Assembly: GCA_964016885.1 (NCBI GenBank)
Contig: OZ024753.1
Location: forward strand, 2,790,001 to 2,854,000
DNA: 64,000 bases
Source: Eledone cirrhosa
Lineage: Eukaryota
Direction: 5' to 3'
The notes beneath the pieces were generated by a model, which was not told the DNA's origin, did not search any database, and saw only the letters and a list, made by a program, of their open reading frames with translations. Made by a program: the position numbers and the translations under genes. Shown here one piece after another: positions 10,573-63,647 of this stretch; position 1 is the first letter of the stretch, and each line of letters starts with the position of its first letter.

Positions 10573-11116
10573 CCCTTGCAAGCAGGGAAAAGCGGACGTA
10601 ATATGATGATATATATATATATATATGTATATATGTATATATATATATGTATAGAGAGAGAGAGAGAGGTTTATCCGAGAGAGGGAGGGACATTATGTGA
10701 AAGTAAGTGTTTATATACATGTGCATGCAGTAATTGGGAAGGAATTCTTCACCTTTTCTTTGACTTGTTGCAAATTACAACATGGTGGTTAGTTAATGGA
10801 ATCAATCAAACACGTTTCATCTACAATTATAGAAATGTCTACCATTTCACTAAATTCTATTATTTAATCAACACAGCACCATCTATCTTTCTCTCCACCT
10901 CTCTCATTCTCATATATGTATATATATATAGTAATAATAATAAATTTGAAGACTAAAATCCAAAGAGGGCTCGATAAGGATAAATATATATCAAATATAT
11001 AAGAACACACATATACTTACACACATCATATGTAAATATGCATAAACATATATATGTGTATATAAATCAATGTTAAAACAGATGTTATGATTACATAATC
11101 ATATTTATCATATAAC

Positions 11117-12190
11117 ACACTTTGGTGACACCAGCGTACAGCTGTTATGCAATCATTACATTGGCAACAAACGCTATCATTAGAGTATTTACATGTAGTC
11201 ATGTAAAACTCTTTGGGGCATGTTCAAACTCAGGTCATTGTATAATTATTTATAATATTTCTGAAGTTTTACAATATGTAATAATTCTATGTTATACACA
11301 ATATTTTTCCTCTTTAACTACATTGAAATCATCATCATCATCATCGTTTAACGTCCATCTTCCACGCTTGCATGGGTTTGGACAGGAATTTTCCCACTTG
11401 AGGCAAGATTGGTTGACTTGCTCGTATAGGACTGTCTGGAGGGTTTTCTACGGCTGGATGCCCTTCCTAACACCAACCACATTTACAGTGTGGACTGGGA
11501 GGTTTTTACCGTGTTACCTACACGGTCACATTACAGAGTGGACTGTGTGTTTATTTTTGTCATGACACCTACATACGCATTAGTTGAATAAGATGTGTTT
11601 AAACATATGTAAAAATATTAAATTGTTTAAGAAATCTATTCTTTTATCGGAATTTGTTATATATATTTGTTATATACATATACATATATATATATATAAA
11701 TATATATAAGCTTATTTGTAAAACTGTTATATATTGTATTTTGTCTGATGAAGGCATACCATAATTTAATTTGGTATCCCTGAAATATGTATAATGAAAT
11801 AAATATGGTTTTATAAATATAGTTTCCATTTATTAATATCGTATATCTACTCCAAATACTTGTCGCCACCAAACACTTTGGTGACACCAGCGTACAGCTG
11901 TTATGCAATCATTACATTGGCAACAAACACTGGCATGATATCATTAGAGTATTTACATGTAGTCATATGATGGTACAACTTCTCTTTGGGGAATGTTGAA
12001 TCTCAGGTCATTGTATAATCATTTATAATATTTCTGAAGTTTTACAATTCTATGTTATACACAATATTTTTCCTCTTTAACTATATTGAAATAACATAAG
12101 CATTAGTTGAATAAGATGTGTTGAATCATATGTAAAGATATTAAATTGCTTAAGAAATCTATTCTGTTATCTGTATTTGTTATATATATA
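11117..12190 (+). mobile_element. Partial head-to-tail tandem of a hammerhead-bearing element separated by (TA)n
   Basis: 11117-~11665 and 11873-~12190 are diverged copies (acactttggtgacaccagcgtacagc...). Copy 2 is preceded by the 11731 hammerhead; copy 1 is interrupted by an RTE-tail repeat at about 11331-11570. Confidence 0.6.
11731..11806 (+). ncRNA. Minimal type I hammerhead ribozyme, intact core
   Basis: Stem I atattgtattttgt/atgaaataaatat; CTGATGA 11745-11751; stem II aggcatacca/tggtatccct; GAAA 11782-11785; stem III T-ATGT-A; AUA cleavage triplet ending at 11793. Confidence 0.75.
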
Positions 12191-15100
12191 TAACAATTAT
12201 TAGTGTAAAGAGCAAATAGACAAAAATATACCTAATTTTTCTTTCAACGTCCCATGGTCTGACTAACCAAAGTTGTGGATTCATGATGATTCAGAGGTTT
12301 TTTTTAAATCCCAACTAACAGTCTAATTCTATTTAGTCATATACCGCATAAACACATGTTACTACCTATATATATATACACACATACATATAAACATCTC
12401 ATACATATCACTAATGGGTCAATAAAATATCGTTCCCTGGGGATATATACAATTTCAAGCAACTTAAATATAAGTAGCCTGACCAAAATTGTGATCAATT
12501 TTAATTGTGTATAATTAATCAATTTATGATCCCAGCCATCAAGATGGAGAAAACTTTGCCACAGAGGATAATCAGTGAGAACAGAATCATAAAAATCTTG
12601 TCTGTTGGTTTAAGTTTATTACACTAGATAGAAACATCAAAGAGGAATTCAAACAACATATTCTAAGCCAAGGGCTTGCACTGGCAAGCAACCAATAGCA
12701 GTGAGTAGGTATGTGGTTCGGGATCAAGAATGCCAGAAGTTTCCACTGCTATGTCATTAAAGAAAAAATACAAAAAAATACAAACGGAAGGACATATTTT
12801 AATCTAAGGTAAATCCTGTCTGAAAAAAATTGGATAGTTACAGCTACAACAGTGGATGAAATGTAGTCTGGCTTGTGAGTAAATAACAACAGGAAATGTA
12901 ATAATAGCAGACAAGAGTCCACTATTAACTGTACCAATTATTCCAGTTAAAAACAATGGTTTAACAGTAAGTTAAAACTGGCTAAAGTAAATTACATATT
13001 TATATGATACTTCAAGTATAGTGGATAAGTAAAAATCTTGCATATTGTGTTGCATAGATTGGTTTAAGTTTATTGCAAGTATCTGTGGATAATCAGGAAA
13101 TATACACTAGATAGAAACATCAAAGAGGTATTCAAACAACATATTCTAAGCCAAGTCTATAAAAGAGTCTGGAATTTATGTTTACCAAATTTCCTTGAAA
13201 ATCTTCTGTTTAGTGGTATCATTTCCTTGAAAAAGAACTTTATACATAGTTAACCTGATTGGATTCTATATCTTCTATCTTTTAATTAGAAATACTATCT
13301 TCTTCCTCATAGTCAATAGAAAACCAATTAGATGGAGTAACTCTTCCTTACTGTGCCACATTATAAAAGAATATCGTCACATGTTATATGCATTCAGTGT
13401 ATGAACAATCATGCACGTGGTTATATAGAATTATCTAAGTTATCAATAAAAATCATGGCACAGGAAGATAAAAAAGCAAGAGAAAAACAGACACATGAAA
13501 AAAAAATGTCAACCAGATATTGAAGTTATATCAATGTATTGCACACGACTGGCATTGTGTGGTATTCTGCTGCAGCATGCATGGTAACAAAGACACAAAG
13601 ATTAACTTGAGTCATTTTTCTTTTCAACTTGCAGAGAGACTGAACGTTTGAAAAGATTGCGTGATAACAAAATCAGCTTCTTGAAATCTGATTGCATATC
13701 GTTATCCATAACATGGCAAATAATACACTACATACATACCCCCTTTTTATTTGTATATTTTATTTATAAACATTTATTTTCTTTCCTTCTCTGCTTAAGT
13801 AAGATATATTTCAGAACAGCAATATATAAAACAAAAAGCTCTCTTCATCAATTTTACTTTTTTTTTACCCCCTTCAATAATAAATCAGAGATTCTAATTA
13901 GCTAAAAGGGGTTTTCCCTAAGACTTAATAAAAGATTTTCTTTTTAAAGAAGATCTATATCTCATCGCCTTATACAAACAGATTACTTTGCTGAGGTAAA
14001 ACAAAACAAAAAACAAAATATACACCACTTATTCCTAGAAAATGATTACCATGACAATGGCAATCATTTTGCTTCTGATTGCTAATTCCATTTCCGTTTT
14101 GAGAAAATATAATTTGCTGGCAGAATAAGATATATAAATAAAATAACAGAACTGTAACATTTATCAGCTGCATTGTGGTTTTCAATAGAGGGAAATAAGA
14201 AATGAGATATTATTTTTTATTGAATTACCAATCAGTCTTTTAGCCTCTTGTGACTAACAATAGACCACAGCATCACATTAATAAAATAGTTGTTAGGATG
14301 GGCATATAGGTACAAACATTTGCTCTAACATTTCAATCAAATATCTTTATAAACGAAAATATATAATATGGGATAACTAGTTCTCTGTCTGAAACAGCAG
14401 AACTTACCTCTCCTAATGTTAAAGTCTATCTCAAGCCAGGAGGCTCGTCAGGCTGATGCTTATCCTGGTTTTGTGGTGTGAAGCGGCAGAGTACAAGACT
14501 CCTGCCTGGATAGGTCACCAGTCCATCACAGAGTTAAACCCCCAGCTATTGCTGGTATTCATTTTCAGCTGAGTATACTGGAGCAACAGAAATGAAGTAT
14601 TTTGTTCATGAACACAACACGCTACCTAGCCCAGGAATTGAACCGATGACATTATGATCATAAGTCCAACACCCTTACCACTAGGCCACATCCTCATGCT
14701 GCACAACATTATTACATCATTTATGTTGGCATAGCTGATACTAGTTTGAGTAGAATGGATCAGATAATTATAACTTATGTTGGCAGTAGTGGGTATCTTT
14801 CTATTTCCCTGTCTCTGTAAAAGATAGATTACCTGAGATGTGCTTAAGGATTATGATGTTGCATGGCAATGAGATTTGGGTACCAAATGTGGAAGATTTA
14901 CAGAAGTTGAAGATGTATAAATTAAATTTACATGAAAAGAGCAATGCATGATTAATGAAGGAATAACTGGCTAAGTTGATGTGCACAACAAAGGTAGCTC
15001 CACTGACATGCATATTTAATGCATAGCTGTTGCACCCAAAGGAATGCCTTCTTTAAGGTATGATGATCAGATGATCTGCCTATCTCTATCTCCTGTTCTT

Positions 15101-20504: not shown

Positions 20505-22600
20505 AGTATGTATGGTCCCGTAACTCCTGATAGAGTTGTAGGGGTGTTGTATAAACATACAGCATTTCTTGTGCATTTTAAGTTTGGCGGAGCCCACCCC
20601 TCTCCAGGCCTGAGTACAACAGATTTCTTCTAGAGAGAGGAAGAATTGACTCCAGTAATAGACTGGTATTTTTTTTATTGACCTTGAAATGACGAAAGAC
20701 AAAGTTGACCTCGACGGTATTTGAACTGAGAGAGTTGAGAGCTGGAACAAATACCAGAAAGCATTCTATCCGACATTCTAACAATTCTGTCAATTTTCCG
20801 TAGGCAGTATCAACCCTAAATTATGGAAGGAAGATTTTAGATAAATATAAATATAGTGGAGGCACATGGCTTAGTGGTTAGAGCATTGGCCTTGCAATCG
20901 AAAGGTTGTGAGTTCAATTCTCAGACCGGGTGATATGTTGTGTCCTTGAGCAAGAGACTTTATTTCACATTGCTCCAGTTTACTCAGCTGTAGAAATGAG
21001 ATGATAGGGACTGGGGTCCCTATCATTCCACTGCAAAGTGGTCGTAGAGGTGCCACGGTAAAAAAGCACCCAGCACTCACTGTAAATGAGGTTGGTGTTA
21101 GGAAGGGCATCCAGCTGTAGAAATCAAGCCAGAATCAGTTCCCGTCCCACCCTTGCAAGCAGGGACAAGCGGACGTAAAAATGATGATGATGATGATGAT
21201 GATGATACAGACTTTAAAATGAACAGCTTGGTATCATAGAACCCGGGGCAGTTTCAGGCAGTCTGGTATCAAAAGTGTTAAAGAAGATTATAATTTTGAT
21301 TGCTAGGTTGTTATTTAGTAATGCATGACTGGCATGGTCCCGTAACAAATAAGTTGTAGGGGCACTGTAGTGAGAAACAACATTTCTATGGCATTTTAAA
21401 ACATGGCAGAGCCCATCCCTCTCCAGATCTGAATACAGCAGACTTCTTCCAGAGAAGGATAGAGAGTGAGAGGATGGAAATGAGAAAGAGATATAGTGGA
21501 AAAATCCACCCTCAGTATTTGACTGGTAATCTTTTTATTGACCTTGAATTGATGAAAGGCAAAGTTGACCTCGGTGGGATTTGAACTCAGATAGCAGAAA
21601 GCTGAAACAAATACTGCAAAGCATTCTATCTGACGTTCTAATGACTCTGCTAAATCACTGCCTGTTGTTATAACCCACAGCTAATCCCATTTTTGTCAAG
21701 TAATCAAGACAAATGGTTTATAGTTCATAGTTATATTCACAGCAAGTTGAACTTCTCAGTGTACACCAATGAAACTCTCATCAATTTTAGAGTGTTTTCT
21801 CTCCATACAACCACAGAATAATTCTCCATCATATTGTACACACTCCTACATGGACATGGACCAGAACTAAATTAAGTCTTTTTGAGGTTCTAAGTACTTA
21901 AAAGATTATGTTTCCCCCTGCCCCCAGATATAGCATCTGCGGAAAATGGGGGTGGGCGATTACACATTTAATTTCAATAAAATGGTACCTTTCTTCCCCT
22001 TGAGAACCGAAGCTCATGAGCGTATTTTGCTTAATTGCTATTCCAGCTCTGGCAATGACATTCATCACCACCAACATCATCCTCATCAATAGCTGAATAA
22101 CTTGGCCATGGAAAGATAGTAGCATTGGAAACACACTAAAACCTCAGCTAATTGGTGGTATTTAGCTCCAGGCACATAGGCAGAATTGTGAAGACAAAAC
22201 ATCTTGTAGTATTTGTTCTAGCTCACTGTCCTCTGAGTTCAAATCCTGGAAAGGATGCATGCATACATGGTCCCATAACTCCTGAGGAAGTTGTAGGGGT
22301 GCCATATTGACATACAGCATTTCTTGGGAATTTATAAACTTGGCAGAACCCAATCTGTTCCAGATCTGAATCCAGAAGATTTCTTCCAGAGAAAGAAAGA
22401 GTGAGTAAGAGAGTGGAATTGAAAAAGATATAAAGAGGGAGAGTCGATCCTAGTACTAGACTTGTACTTTTTTATCAACCTTGAATGGATGAAAGGCAGA
22501 GTTAACTTTGGTGGGATTTTAACTTAAAGAGCAGAGTTGAAACAAATACGGCAAAGCATTCTATCCAATGTTCTAATGACTGCCAATTCACTGCCTCATT
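20505..22600 (-). mobile_element. Cluster of SINE family C copies (family A-like head, different tail), interspersed with other repeats
   Basis: Copies at about 20505-20800, 21330-21665 and 22260-22600; plus-strand copies at about 44955-45285 and 48560-48780. Confidence 0.65.
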
Positions 22601-30831: not shown

Positions 30832-32281
30832 ATTCTCATAAATTGCTACAAAGGTAAAGGGGATGCTCTGGAGAGGAGCAATTATAGGGGTATAAAACTG
30901 ATGGATCAGGTTATGAAAGTAGCAGAAAAGATATTAGCACAACTAATTAGATAAAGGGTCAAACTAGATGAGATGCAGTCTGGTTTTGTGCCTGGGAAAA
31001 GTACAACAGATGCCCTCTTCTTGGTGAGACAATTACAAGAGAGGTTCTTAGCTTTTGTTGACTTAGAGAAGGCCTTTGATAGGGTACCCGGTCTGTCATC
31101 TGGTGGTCCCTAAGGAAACTAGGTGTTGAGGACAGTGCAAACTTTGTACAGAGGTGCTGTCAGTAAAGTCAGGGTAGGAATGGAGTTTAGTGAGGAATTC
31201 CAGATACAAGTAGGAGTACATCAAGGTTCGGTCGTCAGCCCGCTCTTGTTCATTATAGTCCTCCAAGCCATAACAAAGGAGTTTAAGACTTGCTGTCCAT
31301 GGGAACTTCTCTATGCTGATGATCTGGTTCTTATAGCAGAATCAGTAGAGGAGCTAGAGAATAAATTCTGGCTATGGAAACAACAGTTGGAAGCAAGAGG
31401 ACTGAGAGTGAACCTAGCTAAGACAAAAGTGTTGATGAGTAGAAAAGAGGACAAAATTCTGATTCCATCAGGGAAATGGCCATGTTCGATATGCAGAAAA
31501 GGAACTGGGTACACAAGAGATGTAATGGGATAGCAGGCAAACTAACAGGTAGGGAGAAATACGTATGCAGTAAATGTACAAGGAAATTAGACAGTAAAAG
31601 CTGCACTGATAGACACATTTTTCAAATGCAGGCGGGTGCTATAGAAGTGGTTGATAGCTTCCGGTACCTAGGAGATCAGATTAGCATGGGAGGGGGGGGG
31701 GGGGGGGGGTCCGAGGCCATAGTATCTAGAATAAGGGTCGGTTGGAAGATGTTTAGGGTGCTGCTTCCTCTGCTGACGCAGAAGGGTTTCTCCCTGCGTA
31801 CGAAAGGCCGGTTGTATGATGCCTGTGTGAGGAGCGCAATGCTGCATGGTAGTGAGACTTGGGCAGCAACTGCAGAGGATATGTGATGTGGCTGGAGAGA
31901 AATGAGGCAAGCATGCTCCGTTGGATGTGCAATGTCAATGTGCGTGAACGACCCAGCATGGATGTGTTGAAAGAGAAACTGTGTCTGAGAGGGATAGAAT
32001 GTAGTGTGCGAGAGAGGAGACTACGGTGGTATGGACATGTGATGTGCATGGAGGATGACCGATGGGTGAAGAAGTGCCAGGAAATGCCAGTTGAAGGAAG
32101 ATGTGGTAGAGGTAGACCACGAAAAACATGGGCGGAGGTGGTGAGAACAGACCTCAGATTGCTGAAGCTCACGGTGGAGATGACGAAGGACCGTGACAAG
32201 TGGAGAGATGCTGTGCTGAATAAAACCCATCCTACCCTTGCAAGCAGGGAAAAGCGAACGTAAAATGATGATCATGATGAT
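30832..32281 (+). mobile_element. 5'-truncated, inactivated RTE-clade LINE (RT, C-terminal region, (ATG)n tail)
   Basis: CYKGKGDALERSNYRGIKL, FVDLEKAFDRVP, QGSVVSPLLF, LLYADDLVL, FRYLG, RRLRWYGHV, GRGRPRKTW; several stops and frameshifts. Confidence 0.92.
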
Positions 32282-35189: not shown

Positions 35190-36183
35190 TATGAACAGCA
35201 TTGTTGCATGGTAGTGAGACCTGGGTACTATTCACAGAGGACCTGAGAAGATTGGAAAGCAATGAAGCATGCATGCTCTGATGGATGTATAATAGTAATA
35301 TACTAAGAGGGCAATTAGGCATAAGAAGGACCAGATGCAGTATACTAGAGAAGAGATTGTATTGGTAATGTCATGTGATGCATATGAAGGATGACAGTTA
35401 TATAAGGTGCAGGGTGATAACAATTGATGGAAGCTATGGAGTAGGAAGACCCAGGAAGAACTGGGACGAGGTGATAAAAGCTGACCTTATACAATTGCAC
35501 CTCTGAAAGACAAGGACACAGGATCGAGATTTTTGGCGTTATGCAGTAATACAGAAGACACATCTTCCCATATACATGGACTCAAACACACTACTTGTAG
35601 GCACCTCTTAAACACTATATTCTCTTCCATACACCTCCACACCCCTACATACACCCTCCCACTACAGTCCACACCACCCTTGCACTCAAAAGTTATGTTG
35701 ATATCACAAAAAGGCATCCAGCCCGCTCTGTAAAGTGATCATGTAGGTGTCAATAAAAACCACCCAGTCTATACTGTAAAGTGGTCATGTAGGTGTCACA
35801 ACAAAAGGAACACAGTCCACACTGTACAGTGATCATATAGGTGTCATGACAAAAAGCACCCAGTCCACACTGTAAAGTGATCATATAAGTATCACAACAA
35901 AGAGTGCCCAGTCCTCACTATAAAGTGGGCATATAGGTGTCATGAAACAAAGCACCCAGTCCACACTGTAAAGTGGTCATGTAGGTGTCACAAAAAAAAG
36001 CATCCAGCACATACTGTAAATGTGGTTGGCGTTAGGAAGGGCATCCAGCTGGAAAAACCTAGCCAGAAACAGTTCTATATGAGAAGGTCACAGTCACCTG
36101 ACCCAACAAGCTTCAAATGGGACAACCCGTCTTCCCCATGCCAGCATGGAAAATGAACGTTCAACAATGATGATGGCAATGAT
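35190..36183 (+). mobile_element. Degenerate RTE 3' region with ~6 tandem ~48-bp UTR units and (ATG)n tail
   Basis: ALLHGSETW..RLESNEACML..GRPRKNWDEVIKADL relics; units ctgtaaagtggtcatgtaggtgtcac..aaaagcacccagtccaca at about 35729-36020. Confidence 0.75.
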
Positions 36184-37927: not shown

Positions 37928-38110
37928 ATGAAGGAAATGTGGTAAGGAACCAGGTGGACCATAACGCACCAAAGTACTCAATACTTAGGGTAGTAGAGTG
38001 GCTAATAGGAACAAGTAAGACCCCGACGGCTGAGCTCAAGCCGTTTCGACCGCTAATTCAGAATTAGCCGTCGAAACGGCTTGAGCTCAGCCGTCGGGGT
38101 CTTACTTGTT

Positions 38111-38115
<5 letters not shown>
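37928..38115 (-). mobile_element. (TA)n-flanked element with a 111-bp fold-back (38005-38115) and the 3' half of a hammerhead
   Basis: 55-bp arms, 1-nt loop at 38060, one C.C mismatch; carries GAAAC-GGCT-TGAGCTC-AGCC-GTC-GGGGT (stem III, GUC site, stem I'). Confidence 0.6.
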
Positions 38116-38145
<30 letters not shown>

Positions 38146-38151
<6 letters not shown>

Positions 38152-38604
38152 ATGCTTTGGGAGGGTCATGTTGCCAATAAGAAACACACGCACCAGTTGC
38201 TTTCACTTCAATTTATTATAAATTAAATTTATAAATTTCCGGTTGGTTCGTTGGTTCCACAACCAGACGATTGTTCATACCCCATCTTGTTTTTGCACAA
38301 GATGGGGTAGGACAGAACAAAGGAGAGAAACAAAGAAAAGAATCCCCACTCACTGAAGAGGTCAAAGAATGTGAGACGAAAAAACTTTGACAATATATGA
38401 ACAATCGTCTGGTTGTGGAACCAACGAACCAACCGGAAATTTATAAATTCCTAAATTTATAAATTTAATTTATAATAAATTGAAGTGAAAGCAACTGGTG
38501 CGTGTGTTTCTTATTGGCAACATGACCCTCCCAAAGCATAACAATATCGGTTTCAACACACGTTTTCAGATAAAGAATCTTGCTAAACAAATTGAGAAAC
38601 GAAA
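38146..38604 (+). mobile_element. (TA)n-flanked element with ~135-bp inverted arms and a ~115-bp spacer
   Basis: Arms about 38146-38279 and 38395-38547, with a short insertion in the right arm; the spacer has the hairpin taccccatcttgt/acaagatggggta and a CTGAAGA motif; unique 3' extension. Confidence 0.6.
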
Positions 38605-38619
38605 TATATATATATATAT

Positions 38620-38935
38620 ATAATATAAGATCAAAAGATGGTTAAAAGAGTTCCATGTATTTTATTATGCGCATTTCAAAAACAAATATCATCATGAGAT
38701 GACATTTGCGTTTTTGTCAGATAAAATAGGGAGACATGATATGAAGGTTAAAAAGCACTTGTGAATAGTGCAGTTTTAAATCAACATATTGAAAATGTGC
38801 GTAATAAAATACATGGAACTCTTTTAACCATCTTTTGATCTTATATTATTTATACTCCAGTCCCACAAACTGTAGAGTGCTACTTATCCGATATCTGCAT
38901 TGCTTTATTGTACTACAATAAAACTCACCTCCTAC
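38620..38935. mobile_element. (TA)n-flanked element with ~60-bp inverted arms and a hammerhead
   Basis: Arms 38620-38679 and 38789-38849; hammerhead at 38658-38728 on the minus strand; unique right extension. Confidence 0.6.
38658..38728 (-). ncRNA. Minimal type I hammerhead ribozyme with a G8>A core change
   Basis: Minus strand: tattttat-CTGACAA-aaacgcaaatgtcatc(tcat)gatgatatttgttttt-GAAA-T-GCGC-A-TA-ataaaata. 8-bp stem I, long stem II, palindromic GCGC loop. Confidence 0.65.
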
Positions 38936-39020: not shown

Positions 39021-39053
<33 letters not shown>

Positions 39054-39275
39054 GTAATAATAATAAATTTGAAGACTAAAATCCAAAGAGGGCTCGATAA
39101 GGATAAATATATATCAAATATATAAGAACCGTAGAGCAAAAATTTATTAAAATAACAGATTAAAGAATCGCTGCTTTCACTCTTAATGGGATCTTCTGAA
39201 ACTATTTCAGAAGATCCTGTTAAGGGTGAAAGCAGCGATTCTTTGCTTAAACTTGAATCTGTTATTTTAATAAAT
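39054..39275 (-). mobile_element. (TA)n-flanked element with imperfect fold-back 39142-39275
   Basis: Arms centred on 39203; the terminal 76 bp (39054-39129) are identical to 10931-11006, which also abuts (TA)n. Confidence 0.55.
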
Positions 39276-56185: not shown

Positions 56186-58606
56186 TAACCCTTCTGTCTA
56201 AAGACTATATCCCTACACCTATCTTAATGTGTCATCTGCCTAGAGACTTGAATAAATACTAGGGGCAACCACTGTCTGGAAGGCATTGTTTATCTTCCCT
56301 TGTGTTAGAATGATGCATGTGACATAGTATGGTTTGATGGCTTGAATTCTTGATATTGTAGAATGGAAATCTAGAAACTACAAACTCAGCTAAGTTATTC
56401 TTTTACAGCTAAATTATTCTTATTAATATCACAGATTTGATGTGGAATTGCTTTAGTTTATTTGTTACTTTATTGCTGTATTAACGATGGAATACACTGT
56501 ATATCAATTAATTTGTGAAGAATTTTGCAGGTTGTATTGAAATTATTATTTCATTACGATGATAGTAACTTAACATATGGTTTTTATATGAAAGTATTTT
56601 GAAAGATTATAATTTAAATAGGAACTGCTTTAAAATGTATGATTATAGATATACATATAAAAATGGTGTGCTCATGCATGGAGATGCTATAAAATAGCTA
56701 ATATAACGAGGTGACCAATTAAGTCTACCATTCAAGTATGCCATAGTAAGATTTGAAGTCAGAATACAAAGAGCCAGAAAAAATACTGCAAAGCATTGCA
56801 TCCAATACCCTAAGAATTATGGCAGCCCACTGTCTCAAGACTGACACTTTATTGATCTTCAGAAGTACGACTTGTAGACAGAAGCTATAAAGCTGGAATG
56901 AACACTGCTCAGCATTTAATTTTACGCACTATTGCTTTGACCAATTCACCACCTATATGTTGTAAATTGCTTGTTTCCTAGAACTGCAATACATAATTCA
57001 ACAATAGAGTTCATGGTAATTATTAATTCAAATAGTTTTGAGATATGAAATAAAAGTAATCCTCTATATCAGAGCAGATTATTTGTCAGTATTAATGACA
57101 TAATTACCTTGGATGTAGGTAATAGAACTATGTCTAATGATAAATCTATTTAATAGAATTATCATTAATGTGAGAGTGTTGAAGACTGGTGGATTAAATA
57201 TATCACAGTATTTAGTGACGTCACCAACAATTTCAGTTGATATCCCACACAACTGTAGACTTTGTCTTTCAAATGCTTCAGTTAATAATATAAAAGCCAC
57301 TCATTTCCAGAGTCAATTAAATCAACTCAATTCCTCCTTGTGCCAATGTGAGAAATTATAATTTACTTAAAAGTGGCATACACCATTTAATTTCATTGCT
57401 TAACACTATACATTCGAATCATAGTTTAAAGTGAAATTTTCTTTTCAGTAATTTAATGGTAGATACATATATAAATTTAATGGGGCAACAGTAAATATAA
57501 AGGTCATCTGAAAAAACATACTCTTTTCCCAATAGAATGTTGCCATTTAGTTAACTAAAAGAACTGATAGTTACAATGACTTGTCTCATATAAGTGTGAT
57601 AAATAGTAATACATATATCAAATGTTAGTGGTATCCATTAAGAAGTAAATAATTCTACTAACTTTACCGTAAAAGCAAATAGTAGTTTTGACATTCATTC
57701 TTTATCCTAACATTAGAAAAGTAAATTATGTAAATTATTTCAAAGTTTGATACAAACACAGTTTCTTTACAACATAAAGGCAGCCTTTCAATGCCACTGT
57801 GTCTAAAAGATTATATGCAAATTATAATAGAATATAAAGTCTCCTAAATCATAAAACTCACATGGACTTCTTCTGTGAGAATAAAAAGTAATTTGTTTAG
57901 GTAAAATACTGTGAGTGAATTTGAATTTATATGAACTTGATATGGTTCCTTTTGAGTAAAATCAATTAAATTAAGATGTGGTCTCTGTTTAATGCGAATA
58001 CATAAAATAAGAAAACAACAGCAAAAACATAATGTTGTAATCTCAAAATTTACCCCATACACCAAAAAACAACAATAACAACAAATAACATGAAATTAAA
58101 GCGGCTTATGGTATTTTTCAAACTGTTTAATGTTTTGAGTTCAAACCATGCTAGGTTGTCATGTTATGAGTTTAGTCAAGTTAAGTGACCATATCTTGCT
58201 CATACTGTCTATTTTAGGGACATTTCTAATTTTCTTTTTCTTTTTACAGATGGATGCACTTTCTAATGCCATTTTATTATTTGGGAAATTTTTCATTGTT
58301 CTTTTATTACATCCTCTGTTTTTTTTTTTTTTTACACGCAGAAATGCCCATTTGTACCGTCCTGTATTGTCCTGTACTGTCCTTAATGTCTACATTGTGT
58401 AAACCCTTGCTGGCCTTGTGCCTAAAGTAGAAACAATTATTATTATTATTATTATCTATCTTTATTTACACACCCTTTATATGCTTTCTACTTCTACTAT
58501 TCTTAATTTATGCACCACCCCTCTCTTCTATATTCTCATTCACTAGGACACACAAACTATATGCCCCTGCCTTTTCATATATATATATGTAGCAAATAAA
58601 ATCATA

Positions 58607-61753: not shown

Positions 61754-63647
61754 ATGGAGGCCTTAAAGGATGCAGTGTCTCGACAGCTAACAACTGATGC
61801 AGGTAGTTTGTTCCATGGAGGCCTTAAAGGATGCAGTGTCTTGACAGCTAACAACTGATGCAGGTAGTTTGTTCCATGGAGGCCTTAAAGGATGCAGTGT
61901 CTTGACAGCTAACAACTGATGCAGGTAGTTTGTTCCATGGAGGCCTTAAAGGATGCAGTGTCTTGACAGCTAACAACTGATGCAGGTAGTTTGTTCCATG
62001 GAGGCCTTAAAGGATGCAGTGTCTTGACAGCTAACAACTGATGCAGGTAGTTTGTTCCATGGAGGCCTTAAAGGATGCAGTGTCTTGACAGCTAACAACT
62101 GATGCAGGTAGTTTGTTCCATGGAGGCCTTAAAGGATGCAGTGTCTTGACAGCTAACAACTGATGCAGGTAGTTTGTTCCATGGAGGCCTTAAAGGATGC
62201 AGTGTCTTGACAGCTAACAACTGATGCAGGTAGTTTGTTCCATGGAGGCCTTAAAGGATGCAGTGTCTTGACAGCTAACAACTGATGCAGGTAGTTTGTT
62301 CCATGGAGGCCTTAAAGGATGCAGTGTCTTGACAGCTAACAACTGATGCAGGTAGTTTGTTCCATGGAGGCCTTAAAGGATGCAGTGTCTTGACAGCTAA
62401 CAACTGATGCAGGTAGTTTGTTCCATGGAGGCCTTAAAGGATGCAGTGTCTTGACAGCTAACAACTGATGCAGGTAGTTTGTTCCATGGAGGCCTTAAAG
62501 GATGCAGTGTCTTGACAGCTAACAACTGATGCAGGTAGTTTGTTCCATGGAGGCCTTAAAGGATGCAGTGTCTTGACAGCTAACAACTGATGCAGGTAGT
62601 TTGTTCCATGGAGGCCTTAAAGGATGCAGTGTCTTGACAGCTAACAACTGATGCAGGTAGTTTGTTCCATGGAGGCCTTAAAGGATGCAGTGTCTTGACA
62701 GCTAACAACTGATGCAGGTAGTTTGTTCCATGGAGGCCTTAAAGGATGCAGTGTCTTGACAGCTAACAACTGATGCAGGTAGTTTGTTCCATGGAGGCCT
62801 TAAAGGATGCAGTGTCTTGACAGCTAACAACTGATGCAGGTAGTTTGTTCCATGGAGGCCTTAAAGGATGCAGTGTCTTGACAGCTAACAACTGATGCAG
62901 GTAATTTGTTCCATGGAGGCCTTAAAGGATGCAGTGTCTTGACAGCTAACAACTGATGCAGGTAGTTTGTTCCATGGAGGCCTTAAAGGATGCAGTGTCT
63001 CGACAGCTAACAACTGATGCAGGTAGTTTGTTCCATGGAGGCCTTAAAGGATGCAGTGTCTCGACAGCTAACAACTGATGCAGGTAGTTTGTTCCATGGA
63101 GGCCTTAAAGGATGCAGTGTCTTGACAGCTAACAACTGATGCAGGTAGTTTGTTCCATGGAGGCCTTAAAGGATGCAGTGTCTCGACAGCTAACAACTGA
63201 TGCAGGTAGTTTGTTCCATGGAGGCCTTAAAGGATGCAGTATCTTGGCAGCTAACAACTGATGCAGGTAGTTTGTTCCATGGAGGCCTTAAAGGATGCAG
63301 TGTCTTGACAGCTAACAACTGATGCAGGTAGTTTGTTCCATGGAGGCCTTAAAGGATGCAGTGTCTTGACAGCTAACAACTGATGCAGGTAGTTTGTTCC
63401 ATGGAGGCCTTAAAGGATGCAGTGTCTTGACAGCTAACAACTGATGCAGGTAGTTTGTTCCATGGAGGCCTTAAAGGATGCAGTGTCTTGACAGCTAACA
63501 ACTGATGCAGGTAGTTTGTTCCATGGAGGCCTTAAAGGATGCAGTATCTTGACAGCTAACAACTGATGCAGGTAATTTGTTCCATGGAGGCCTTAAAGGA
63601 TGCAGTGTCTCGACAGCTAACAACTGATGCAGGTAGTTTGTTCCATG
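61754..63647. repeat. 61-bp minisatellite, ~31 near-identical copies, inside a CR1-like LINE 3' end (whole element about 61597-63656, minus strand)
   Basis: Unit atggaggccttaaaggatgcagtgtcttgacagctaacaactgatgcaggtagtttgttcc shifts 1 nt per 60-nt line; a single-copy equivalent lies at about 27905-27966. Confidence 0.95.

Follow-up and report, generated by a model that had tools for sequence, protein, structure and literature searches.

An aged, hammerhead-bearing and retrozyme-like repeat, probably PLE-derived, in the genome of Eledone cirrhosa

The stretch of the Eledone cirrhosa genome analysed here (the window: 64,000 nt of contig OZ024753.1, positions 2,790,001 to 2,854,000) contains, near 11 kb, an intact-core type I hammerhead set within a partly duplicated non-coding repeat. 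We consider it likely, at a probability of roughly 0.7, that this repeat is an aged, non-autonomous derivative of a Penelope-like element (PLE), of the non-LTR-retrozyme type, with a non-coding unit of ~480–515 nt. Hammerheads in PLE ends and in non-LTR retrozymes number in the thousands in invertebrate genomes, and one more aged copy of this type changes little. If, as we infer from one locus and without a consensus, the repeat belongs to a family, its copies would allow the start and stop points of PLE reverse transcriptase to be mapped in nature, an open question for PLE mobility. Literature searches on cephalopod or octopus hammerheads or retrozymes gave only one paper that was relevant by title and abstract, and the families found listed there are autonomous (Craig, 2021; PMC8557442). 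A non-autonomous family may so far have gone undescribed in cephalopods, or may already be part of the O. vulgaris repeat library on Zenodo.

The locus has the order body–(TA)n–ribozyme–body, or X1-(TA)n-Y-X2-(TA)n, amounting to ~1.6 units. Its parts are as follows.

11110..11117, + strand: candidate target-site duplication, left, 8 bp, identical to 12188–12195
11117..11666, + strand: upstream body X1, interrupted, 95% identical to X2 at aligned sites
11330..11570, − strand: SINE-like insertion of 241 bp in X1, seen as an alignment gap and by matches elsewhere
11658..11709, no strand: degenerate (TA)n separating X1 from Y, stopping 35 nt before the ribozyme core
11710..11872, + strand: ribozyme segment Y, single copy in the window by self-BLAST
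11873..12187, + strand: non-coding downstream body X2 with a short (TA)n at its end, six frames without a relevant Pfam match
12188..12195, + strand: candidate target-site duplication, right, 8 bp, identical to 11110–11117

As measured, the unit is 478 nt long with a GC content of 0.28. The segment 11873–12189 aligns to 11117–11329 plus 11571–11666 with 284 matches, 15 substitutions and 5 indels (299 aligned sites), a divergence between the two bodies of 5%. The duplication across the (TA)n tract that the first-pass annotation had described is real, but the upstream copy is split by the 241-bp insertion and has no ribozyme of its own, and the 8-bp repeat around the whole had been missed. The statement in the same annotation that the ribozyme heads the element depends on the phase in which the unit is read; PLE consensi have it close to their 3′ end. 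We found no other copy of X within the 64-kb window, and no tandem of two ribozyme-bearing units at the locus. The substitutions between X1 and X2 are mostly transversions (11 of 15) and four of the indels span 3–10 bp, which is unusual for simple neutral decay.

The 8-bp repeat is matched equally well by 0.7–4.1% of random positions, and a second, 10-bp repeat of TA type surrounds Y-X2 (11700–11709 and 12184–12193), so that a single insertion and two nested insertions both fit. The right junction (12176–12195) is a 20-bp perfect palindrome centred on (TA)n. An LTR or TRIM reading was rejected, as TG...CA termini are missing and the repeat on either side measures 8 bp. The 241-bp insertion in X1, which we infer to be a SINE, has a trinucleotide tail and no target duplication, and many partial copies of its family occur in the window (35931–36183 at 73%, 21031–21123, 1721–1764 and elsewhere), some of them with internal tandem units of 48–49 bp.

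Nothing in the unit points to a coding function. Pfam searches of the unit and X1 in 12 reading frames returned one sub-threshold, unrelated match (E 0.024) and no reverse transcriptase or GIY-YIG domain, a protein search with the 66-residue frame over the Y/X junction yielded no candidate, and a search of the phage collection gave no match. A 57-residue open frame was discarded as coding, since its two matches among 1.84 billion, to low-identity repetitive proteins, are attributable to chance. Having the same sequence after and before the ribozyme, with no ORF between, the locus is unlike an autonomous PLE tandem. A candidate ribozyme relic upstream of X1 was also rejected, its score being equalled in 2.9% of background windows (n = 1137) and in 5.3% of AT-matched ones (n = 152).

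The hammerhead itself has its core at 11745–11793, and its helices extend as follows.

11737..11801, + strand: type I hammerhead with its core, the proximal part of stem I, stem II and the 2-bp helix III, predicted cut after 11793, from a descriptor scan with shuffles and a predicted fold
11752–11761 with 11772–11781, + strand: stem II arms
11710..11823, + strand: long hairpin enclosing the ribozyme, with minimum-free-energy pairs predicted between 11710–11727 and 11805–11823

This motif is the sole match to the strict descriptor on both strands of the window, and it is real, beyond chance: 150 block-wise dinucleotide shuffles gave one match with a stem I of at least 5 pairs and none with at least 8. 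The conserved core residues and the U-H cleavage site are both present. Core positions 3–9 fall at 11745–11751, the second core box at 11782–11785 and residue 17 at A11793, which bears out the first-pass claims that all core nucleotides are there and that the cut would come after 11793. Stem I comprises 8 pairs, a bulged G11736 and then 5–6 pairs (13–14 in total, 3–4 of them G.U), in keeping with the ~13 bp first reported, but stem II, given as 10 bp, is paired at 9 of its 10 positions, the exception being a C.C mismatch (11755 x 11778), and at its base it carries A-U where G-C is usual. Helix III consists of two A-U pairs and the loop 11787–11790. That loop had been described as one change from palindromic; its 4 nt are as claimed, but even unchanged it can pair with itself as RNA by tandem U.G/G.U wobble, weakly so at −2.2 kcal/mol versus −6.5 and −3.2 kcal/mol for the two palindromic variants that had been named. 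An additional 12-pair helix prolongs stem I (11713–11724 with 11808–11819), and the distal helix of the long hairpin begins exactly where the (TA)n tract stops. All three helices can form, open at stem I, with the active register as a minor predicted fold.

The label ‘minimal’ had been applied too loosely to this motif. In minimal hammerheads, helix III is formed by core pairs only, an extra nucleotide follows A9, a G10.1-C11.1 pair is present and stem I has 4–5 bp (Cervera, 2014; PMC4209133). Here there is a tetraloop, no extra nucleotide, an A-U basal pair and a long stem I, so that the motif, with its 2-bp helix III and tetraloop, resembles the canonical-like short form and is not a strict minimal hammerhead. 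The Rfam search that had been suggested matched no hammerhead model. At the gathering score there were no matches in the whole window, and at E values up to 10 there were 10 matches in 10900–12400 and 2 in 11700–11840, none a ribozyme; as the search ran without a known PLE motif as a positive control, this negative shows only that Rfam models miss this hammerhead.

The window is rich in AT and in microsatellites, and the AU-rich stems, with the lack of a hammerhead match in Rfam at E up to 10, might suggest a chance fold in AT-rich DNA. That reading is barely credible and largely refuted, as none of the 150 shuffles equals the motif and the window holds a second, related one.

38658..38728, − strand: second type I hammerhead, of another family, from a relaxed scan, its joint similarity with the first reached in 0 of 400 shuffles

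The relaxed scan gave three matches in the window versus a mean of 0.24 in 25 shuffles. Compared with the two halves of the motif at 11745–11793, the one at 38728–38658 is identical at 12 of 15 and 19 of 24 bases, and it has a near-identical stem I, a perfectly palindromic loop III and a G8-to-A core lesion. All 13 tested pairs are kept between the two, through two one-sided and two two-sided changes, a two-sequence covariation that 124 of 500 shuffles equal and that is not significant. A covariance model built on the two sequences found no third copy, its five further matches all having E of at least 0.62. Outside the ribozyme, the 38.7-kb element and the 11-kb unit have nothing in common. 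A (TA)n tail begins 44 nt past the cut of the 38.7-kb motif, and 62 bp of its 3′ end recur upstream in inverted orientation (38793–38854 versus 38615–38676, 95%). An inverted 3′-end copy together with a (TA)n tail is a PLE signature in the account of Craig (2021; PMC8557442), and this independent example ties the hammerhead type to PLE-style insertions; we regard 38600–38854 (− strand) as a short PLE-style insertion of another family. The third relaxed match (57228–57281, − strand) has one core mismatch and a 5-bp stem II and is within chance expectation.

Several other repeats were noted in the window, and we take them to resemble octopus repeats. A 95-bp repeat occurs at 10912–11006 and 39035–39129 (98%), each copy beside (TA)n and at most ~750 bp from a hammerhead element, a pairing that may be a coincidence of (TA)n targeting. 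Long inverted repeats at 38005–38115, 38144–38547 and 39162–39244 (55 nt at 98%, 95 nt at 100% and 40 nt at 93%) are near-perfect, MITE-like or foldback, and are clustered at (TA)n tracts. A satellite at 61754–63647 consists of 31 copies of a 61-bp unit that are 99% identical. At 31123–32263 (+ strand) there is a broken non-LTR reverse transcriptase, presumably of RTE type, in which 31123–31533 matches Pfam RVT_1 (E 6e-14); the best organism-named match of this fragment, among 120 listed of which 2 bear names, is an Octopus sinensis protein at 65%.

Judging from predicted folds, the copy at 11745–11793 probably no longer self-cleaves. The 131-nt ribozyme region is moderately structured (z −2.45; 6 of 200 shuffles equally stable), and stem II is predicted to be stable (0.92–1.0 at its 9 paired positions). 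However, the hammerhead fold lies 8 kcal/mol above the minimum free energy, and in three contexts the catalytic register of stem I reaches only 1–2% predicted pairing and helix III ~0, because the distal helix of 12–18 pairs shifts stem I out of register. With that helix trimmed, the active register rises to 0.4–0.6 in the best of three contexts and to 0.1–0.3 in the others. Nearest-neighbour models underrate three-way junctions, and the low predicted register should thus be taken as caution, not proof. Activity is doubtful, as the copy lacks a neighbouring ribozyme as dimer partner and its active register is predicted at ~2%; clear cis cleavage of the native monomer would be rather improbable. 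The first-pass proposal of an active ribozyme is unsupported, given a lone motif, a register of 1–2%, helix III at ~0 and ~5% divergence between the bodies, and its argument from dimers requires two motifs on one transcript where the locus has one. Its choice of this motif as the best candidate in the window stands only because no other motif there has its core intact. Elsewhere, a single minimal PLE motif did not cleave (Cervera, 2014), and among predicted Xenopus dimers one of nine cleaved and eight did not (Li et al., 2026; bioRxiv 10.64898/2026.07.22.740005).

We find it very improbable that the motif is an active ribozyme processing its transcript, whether by trans-dimers, through a protein chaperone or because it has been retained by the host. 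Such activity would be consistent with the intact core residues, the stably predicted stem II, the wobble self-pairing of loop III and the register of 0.4–0.6 without the distal helix, and a precedent exists in Poseidon_Ac, whose ribozyme cleaves only with protein (Frangieh, 2024; PMC11167929). But a core of ~12 residues would mostly survive ~2.5% decay per copy anyway, and the motif is single, with its C.C mismatch, A-U basal pair and low register; apart from the intact core, nothing speaks positively for present activity.

A hairpin just past the ribozyme bears on the extent of the unit.

11861..11886, + strand: hairpin across the Y/body junction, 8 bp, with an AC-rich 10-nt loop at 11869–11878

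This is the strongest local hairpin of the unit, equalled in stability by 0.38% of 12,794 sampled 26-mers. One of its arms lies in Y and one in X, which argues that Y and X make up one unit. Its loop is 76–85 nt past the cut site, and the 5′ boundary of the upstream copy falls inside that loop, a coincidence that was noticed post hoc. In Poseidon_Ac, where uncleaved RNA is the main template, reverse transcription starts in an AC-rich stem-loop without target homology (Frangieh, 2024), 85–92 nt past the cut by subtraction of the positions given (PMC11167929).

The position of this loop, at the 5′ end here versus the start of reverse transcription in Poseidon_Ac, keeps alive another explanation, that Y alone is the short, 5′-truncated 3′ end of an autonomous PLE and X an unrelated, locally duplicated piece of DNA or repeat. 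X would then have been doubled by a tandem duplication or as a very long target duplication. Y does have the geometry of a PLE end, stopping 79 nt past the cut, a distance to be set beside the 85–92 nt of Poseidon_Ac and the ~100–200 nt between ribozyme and 3′ end in Hydra elements as published; the 38.7-kb relative meets (TA)n at 44 nt, with a TA-like patch at a similar distance in Y; and X lacks another copy in the 64 kb. Nonetheless, we think this explanation unlikely, as the junction hairpin cannot form without an arm from each of Y and X, the 8-bp repeat flanks X1 to X2 as a whole, and X2, but not Y, ends at (TA)n as expected of an element that targets (TA)n.

The PLE-derived reading of the whole repeat, Y and X together, is the one we prefer. 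In its favour we also count that both bodies end at (TA)n and that the 8-bp repeat flanks the whole. Against it stand the lack of a two-unit ribozyme tandem at the locus, the weak self-pairing of the linear unit (z −0.98; 12 of 100 shuffles equally stable), the weak 8-bp repeat, the non-significant covariation, the lack of an Rfam hammerhead match, the lack of an Octopus PLE partner among the published consensus ends compared, and a 3′ end that is 394 nt from the ribozyme versus at most ~200 nt in the PLE consensi available.

Under this PLE-derived reading, a tandem source locus would have been transcribed into multimeric RNA, which neighbouring hammerheads, paired through loop III, would have cut into monomers, and a host ligase may have circularised these as an optional step. 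Cleavage as dimers and circular templates have both been proposed for PLE ribozymes (Cervera, 2014). Reverse transcriptase and GIY-YIG endonuclease borrowed from an autonomous (TA)n-targeting PLE would then have nicked an AT-rich site, the PLE reverse transcriptase would have copied the RNA from the (UA)n stretch, and the copy at the 11-kb locus would have decayed after insertion. We put a single pass of more than unit length, yielding X-(TA)n-Y-X, at slightly under even odds, and give a distinctly smaller chance to two steps, in which a truncated copy came first and a second Y-X copy then inserted into its (TA)n tail.

A more specific version, in which the locus is the fossil of one rolling-circle reverse transcription event with fixed ends and A-to-I editing scars, is a long shot when all its parts are taken jointly. 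At the 3′ end, the nicked (TA)n target would pair with the internal (UA)n, 35 nt before the ribozyme; at the 5′ end, synthesis would stop in the AC-rich hairpin loop, placed like the initiation hairpin of Poseidon_Ac; and the four G.U pairs of stem I and the G of loop III would be A-to-I scars fixed by reverse transcription. The stem I G.U sites and the loop III G all have a 5′ U, and two of them are A in the 38.7-kb motif. If this version were true, target-paired priming, PLE ‘tail’ sites and RNA editing would be joined in one family. CpG decay is another candidate source of the stem I wobble pairs: CpG is depleted across the window (o/e 0.31), and of 45 tested pairs the two stem I sites concerned come out best, with a register of 0.80. 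However, 13 of the 45 pairs exceed a register of 0.3, the 38.7-kb relative has A-U pairs at the stem I sites, and the 15 X1/X2 substitutions include 11 transversions and no CpG transition.

How, then, does the repeat compare with known systems? Retrozymes have been proposed to derive from PLE pLTRs, which the non-LTR retrozymes of animals match, and an active retrozyme is taken to have two or more successive units that each carry a complete hammerhead (Li et al., 2026). Non-LTR retrozymes are known from animals including mussel (Cervera and de la Pena, 2020; PMC7229834), and the present repeat is like them in its non-coding unit, GC of 28%, type I hammerhead with a 2-bp helix III, head-to-tail order and candidate target duplication of more than 4 bp, with LTR features not seen. 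It is unlike them in having only 1.6 units and one ribozyme, in not being highly self-paired, and in stems I and II that are longer than canonical. The unit is slightly above the 150–450 bp first described for such elements, and within the 51–972 bp given by Li et al. (2026). The ‘retrozyme-like RNA’ of the first-pass annotation agrees with this anatomy (non-coding unit, type I hammerhead, partial tandem, (TA)n ends) and is also backed by the candidate target duplication and by the related PLE-style motif 27 kb away. The repeat would work like a non-LTR retrozyme or a PLE pLTR, but because the two-ribozyme tandem and the self-pairing of retrozymes are not found, we call it a retrozyme-like relic and stop short of a proven retrozyme; nor is it an autonomous PLE.

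Among cephalopods, O. vulgaris has 31 recently active PLE families, in a report whose main text, as available, does not mention ribozymes (Bonar, 2026; PMC13282606). Octopus Naiad and Hydra PLE families include (TA)n targets, one with a hammerhead (Craig, 2021). By eye, the 3′ ends of four published Octopus PLE consensi bear no resemblance to the unit, and two short motifs of the unit are absent from the supplement text of Craig (2021), where line breaks could conceal them. Poseidon_Ac, as described (PMC11167929), likewise has an AC-rich hairpin ~80 nt past the cut, but its loop marks the start of reverse transcription, at the 3′ end, whereas here it marks the 5′ end. The Chlamys element MRC1 in Craig (2021) is similar as a non-autonomous PLE derivative with pLTRs, head-to-tail copies and microsatellite targets, though the Chlamys elements are algal and, in that account, mostly without canonical hammerheads.

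Close parallels also exist with the pseudo-LTRs (pLTRs) of endonuclease-positive (EN+) PLEs (Penelope/Poseidon, Neptune and Hydra, e.g. Hydra-1_Obim of Octopus bimaculoides), although, in the 12 Pfam frames over the unit and X1, the repeat is unlike the autonomous elements in having no reverse transcriptase or GIY-YIG ORF. Partial tandems, inverted 5′-truncated copies and (TA)n targets are described for PLEs, and their consensi, as published, place the ribozyme near the 3′ end, at up to ~200 nt and in Hydra at ~100–200 nt (Craig, 2021). In one Hydra consensus there, a short (TA)n lies, by our own count, ~31 nt before the ribozyme, versus 35 nt in the 11-kb unit. With these pseudo-LTRs the repeat shares a type I hammerhead with a long stem II, a short self-complementary helix III, a partial tandem of pLTR kind and a (TA)n microsatellite target.
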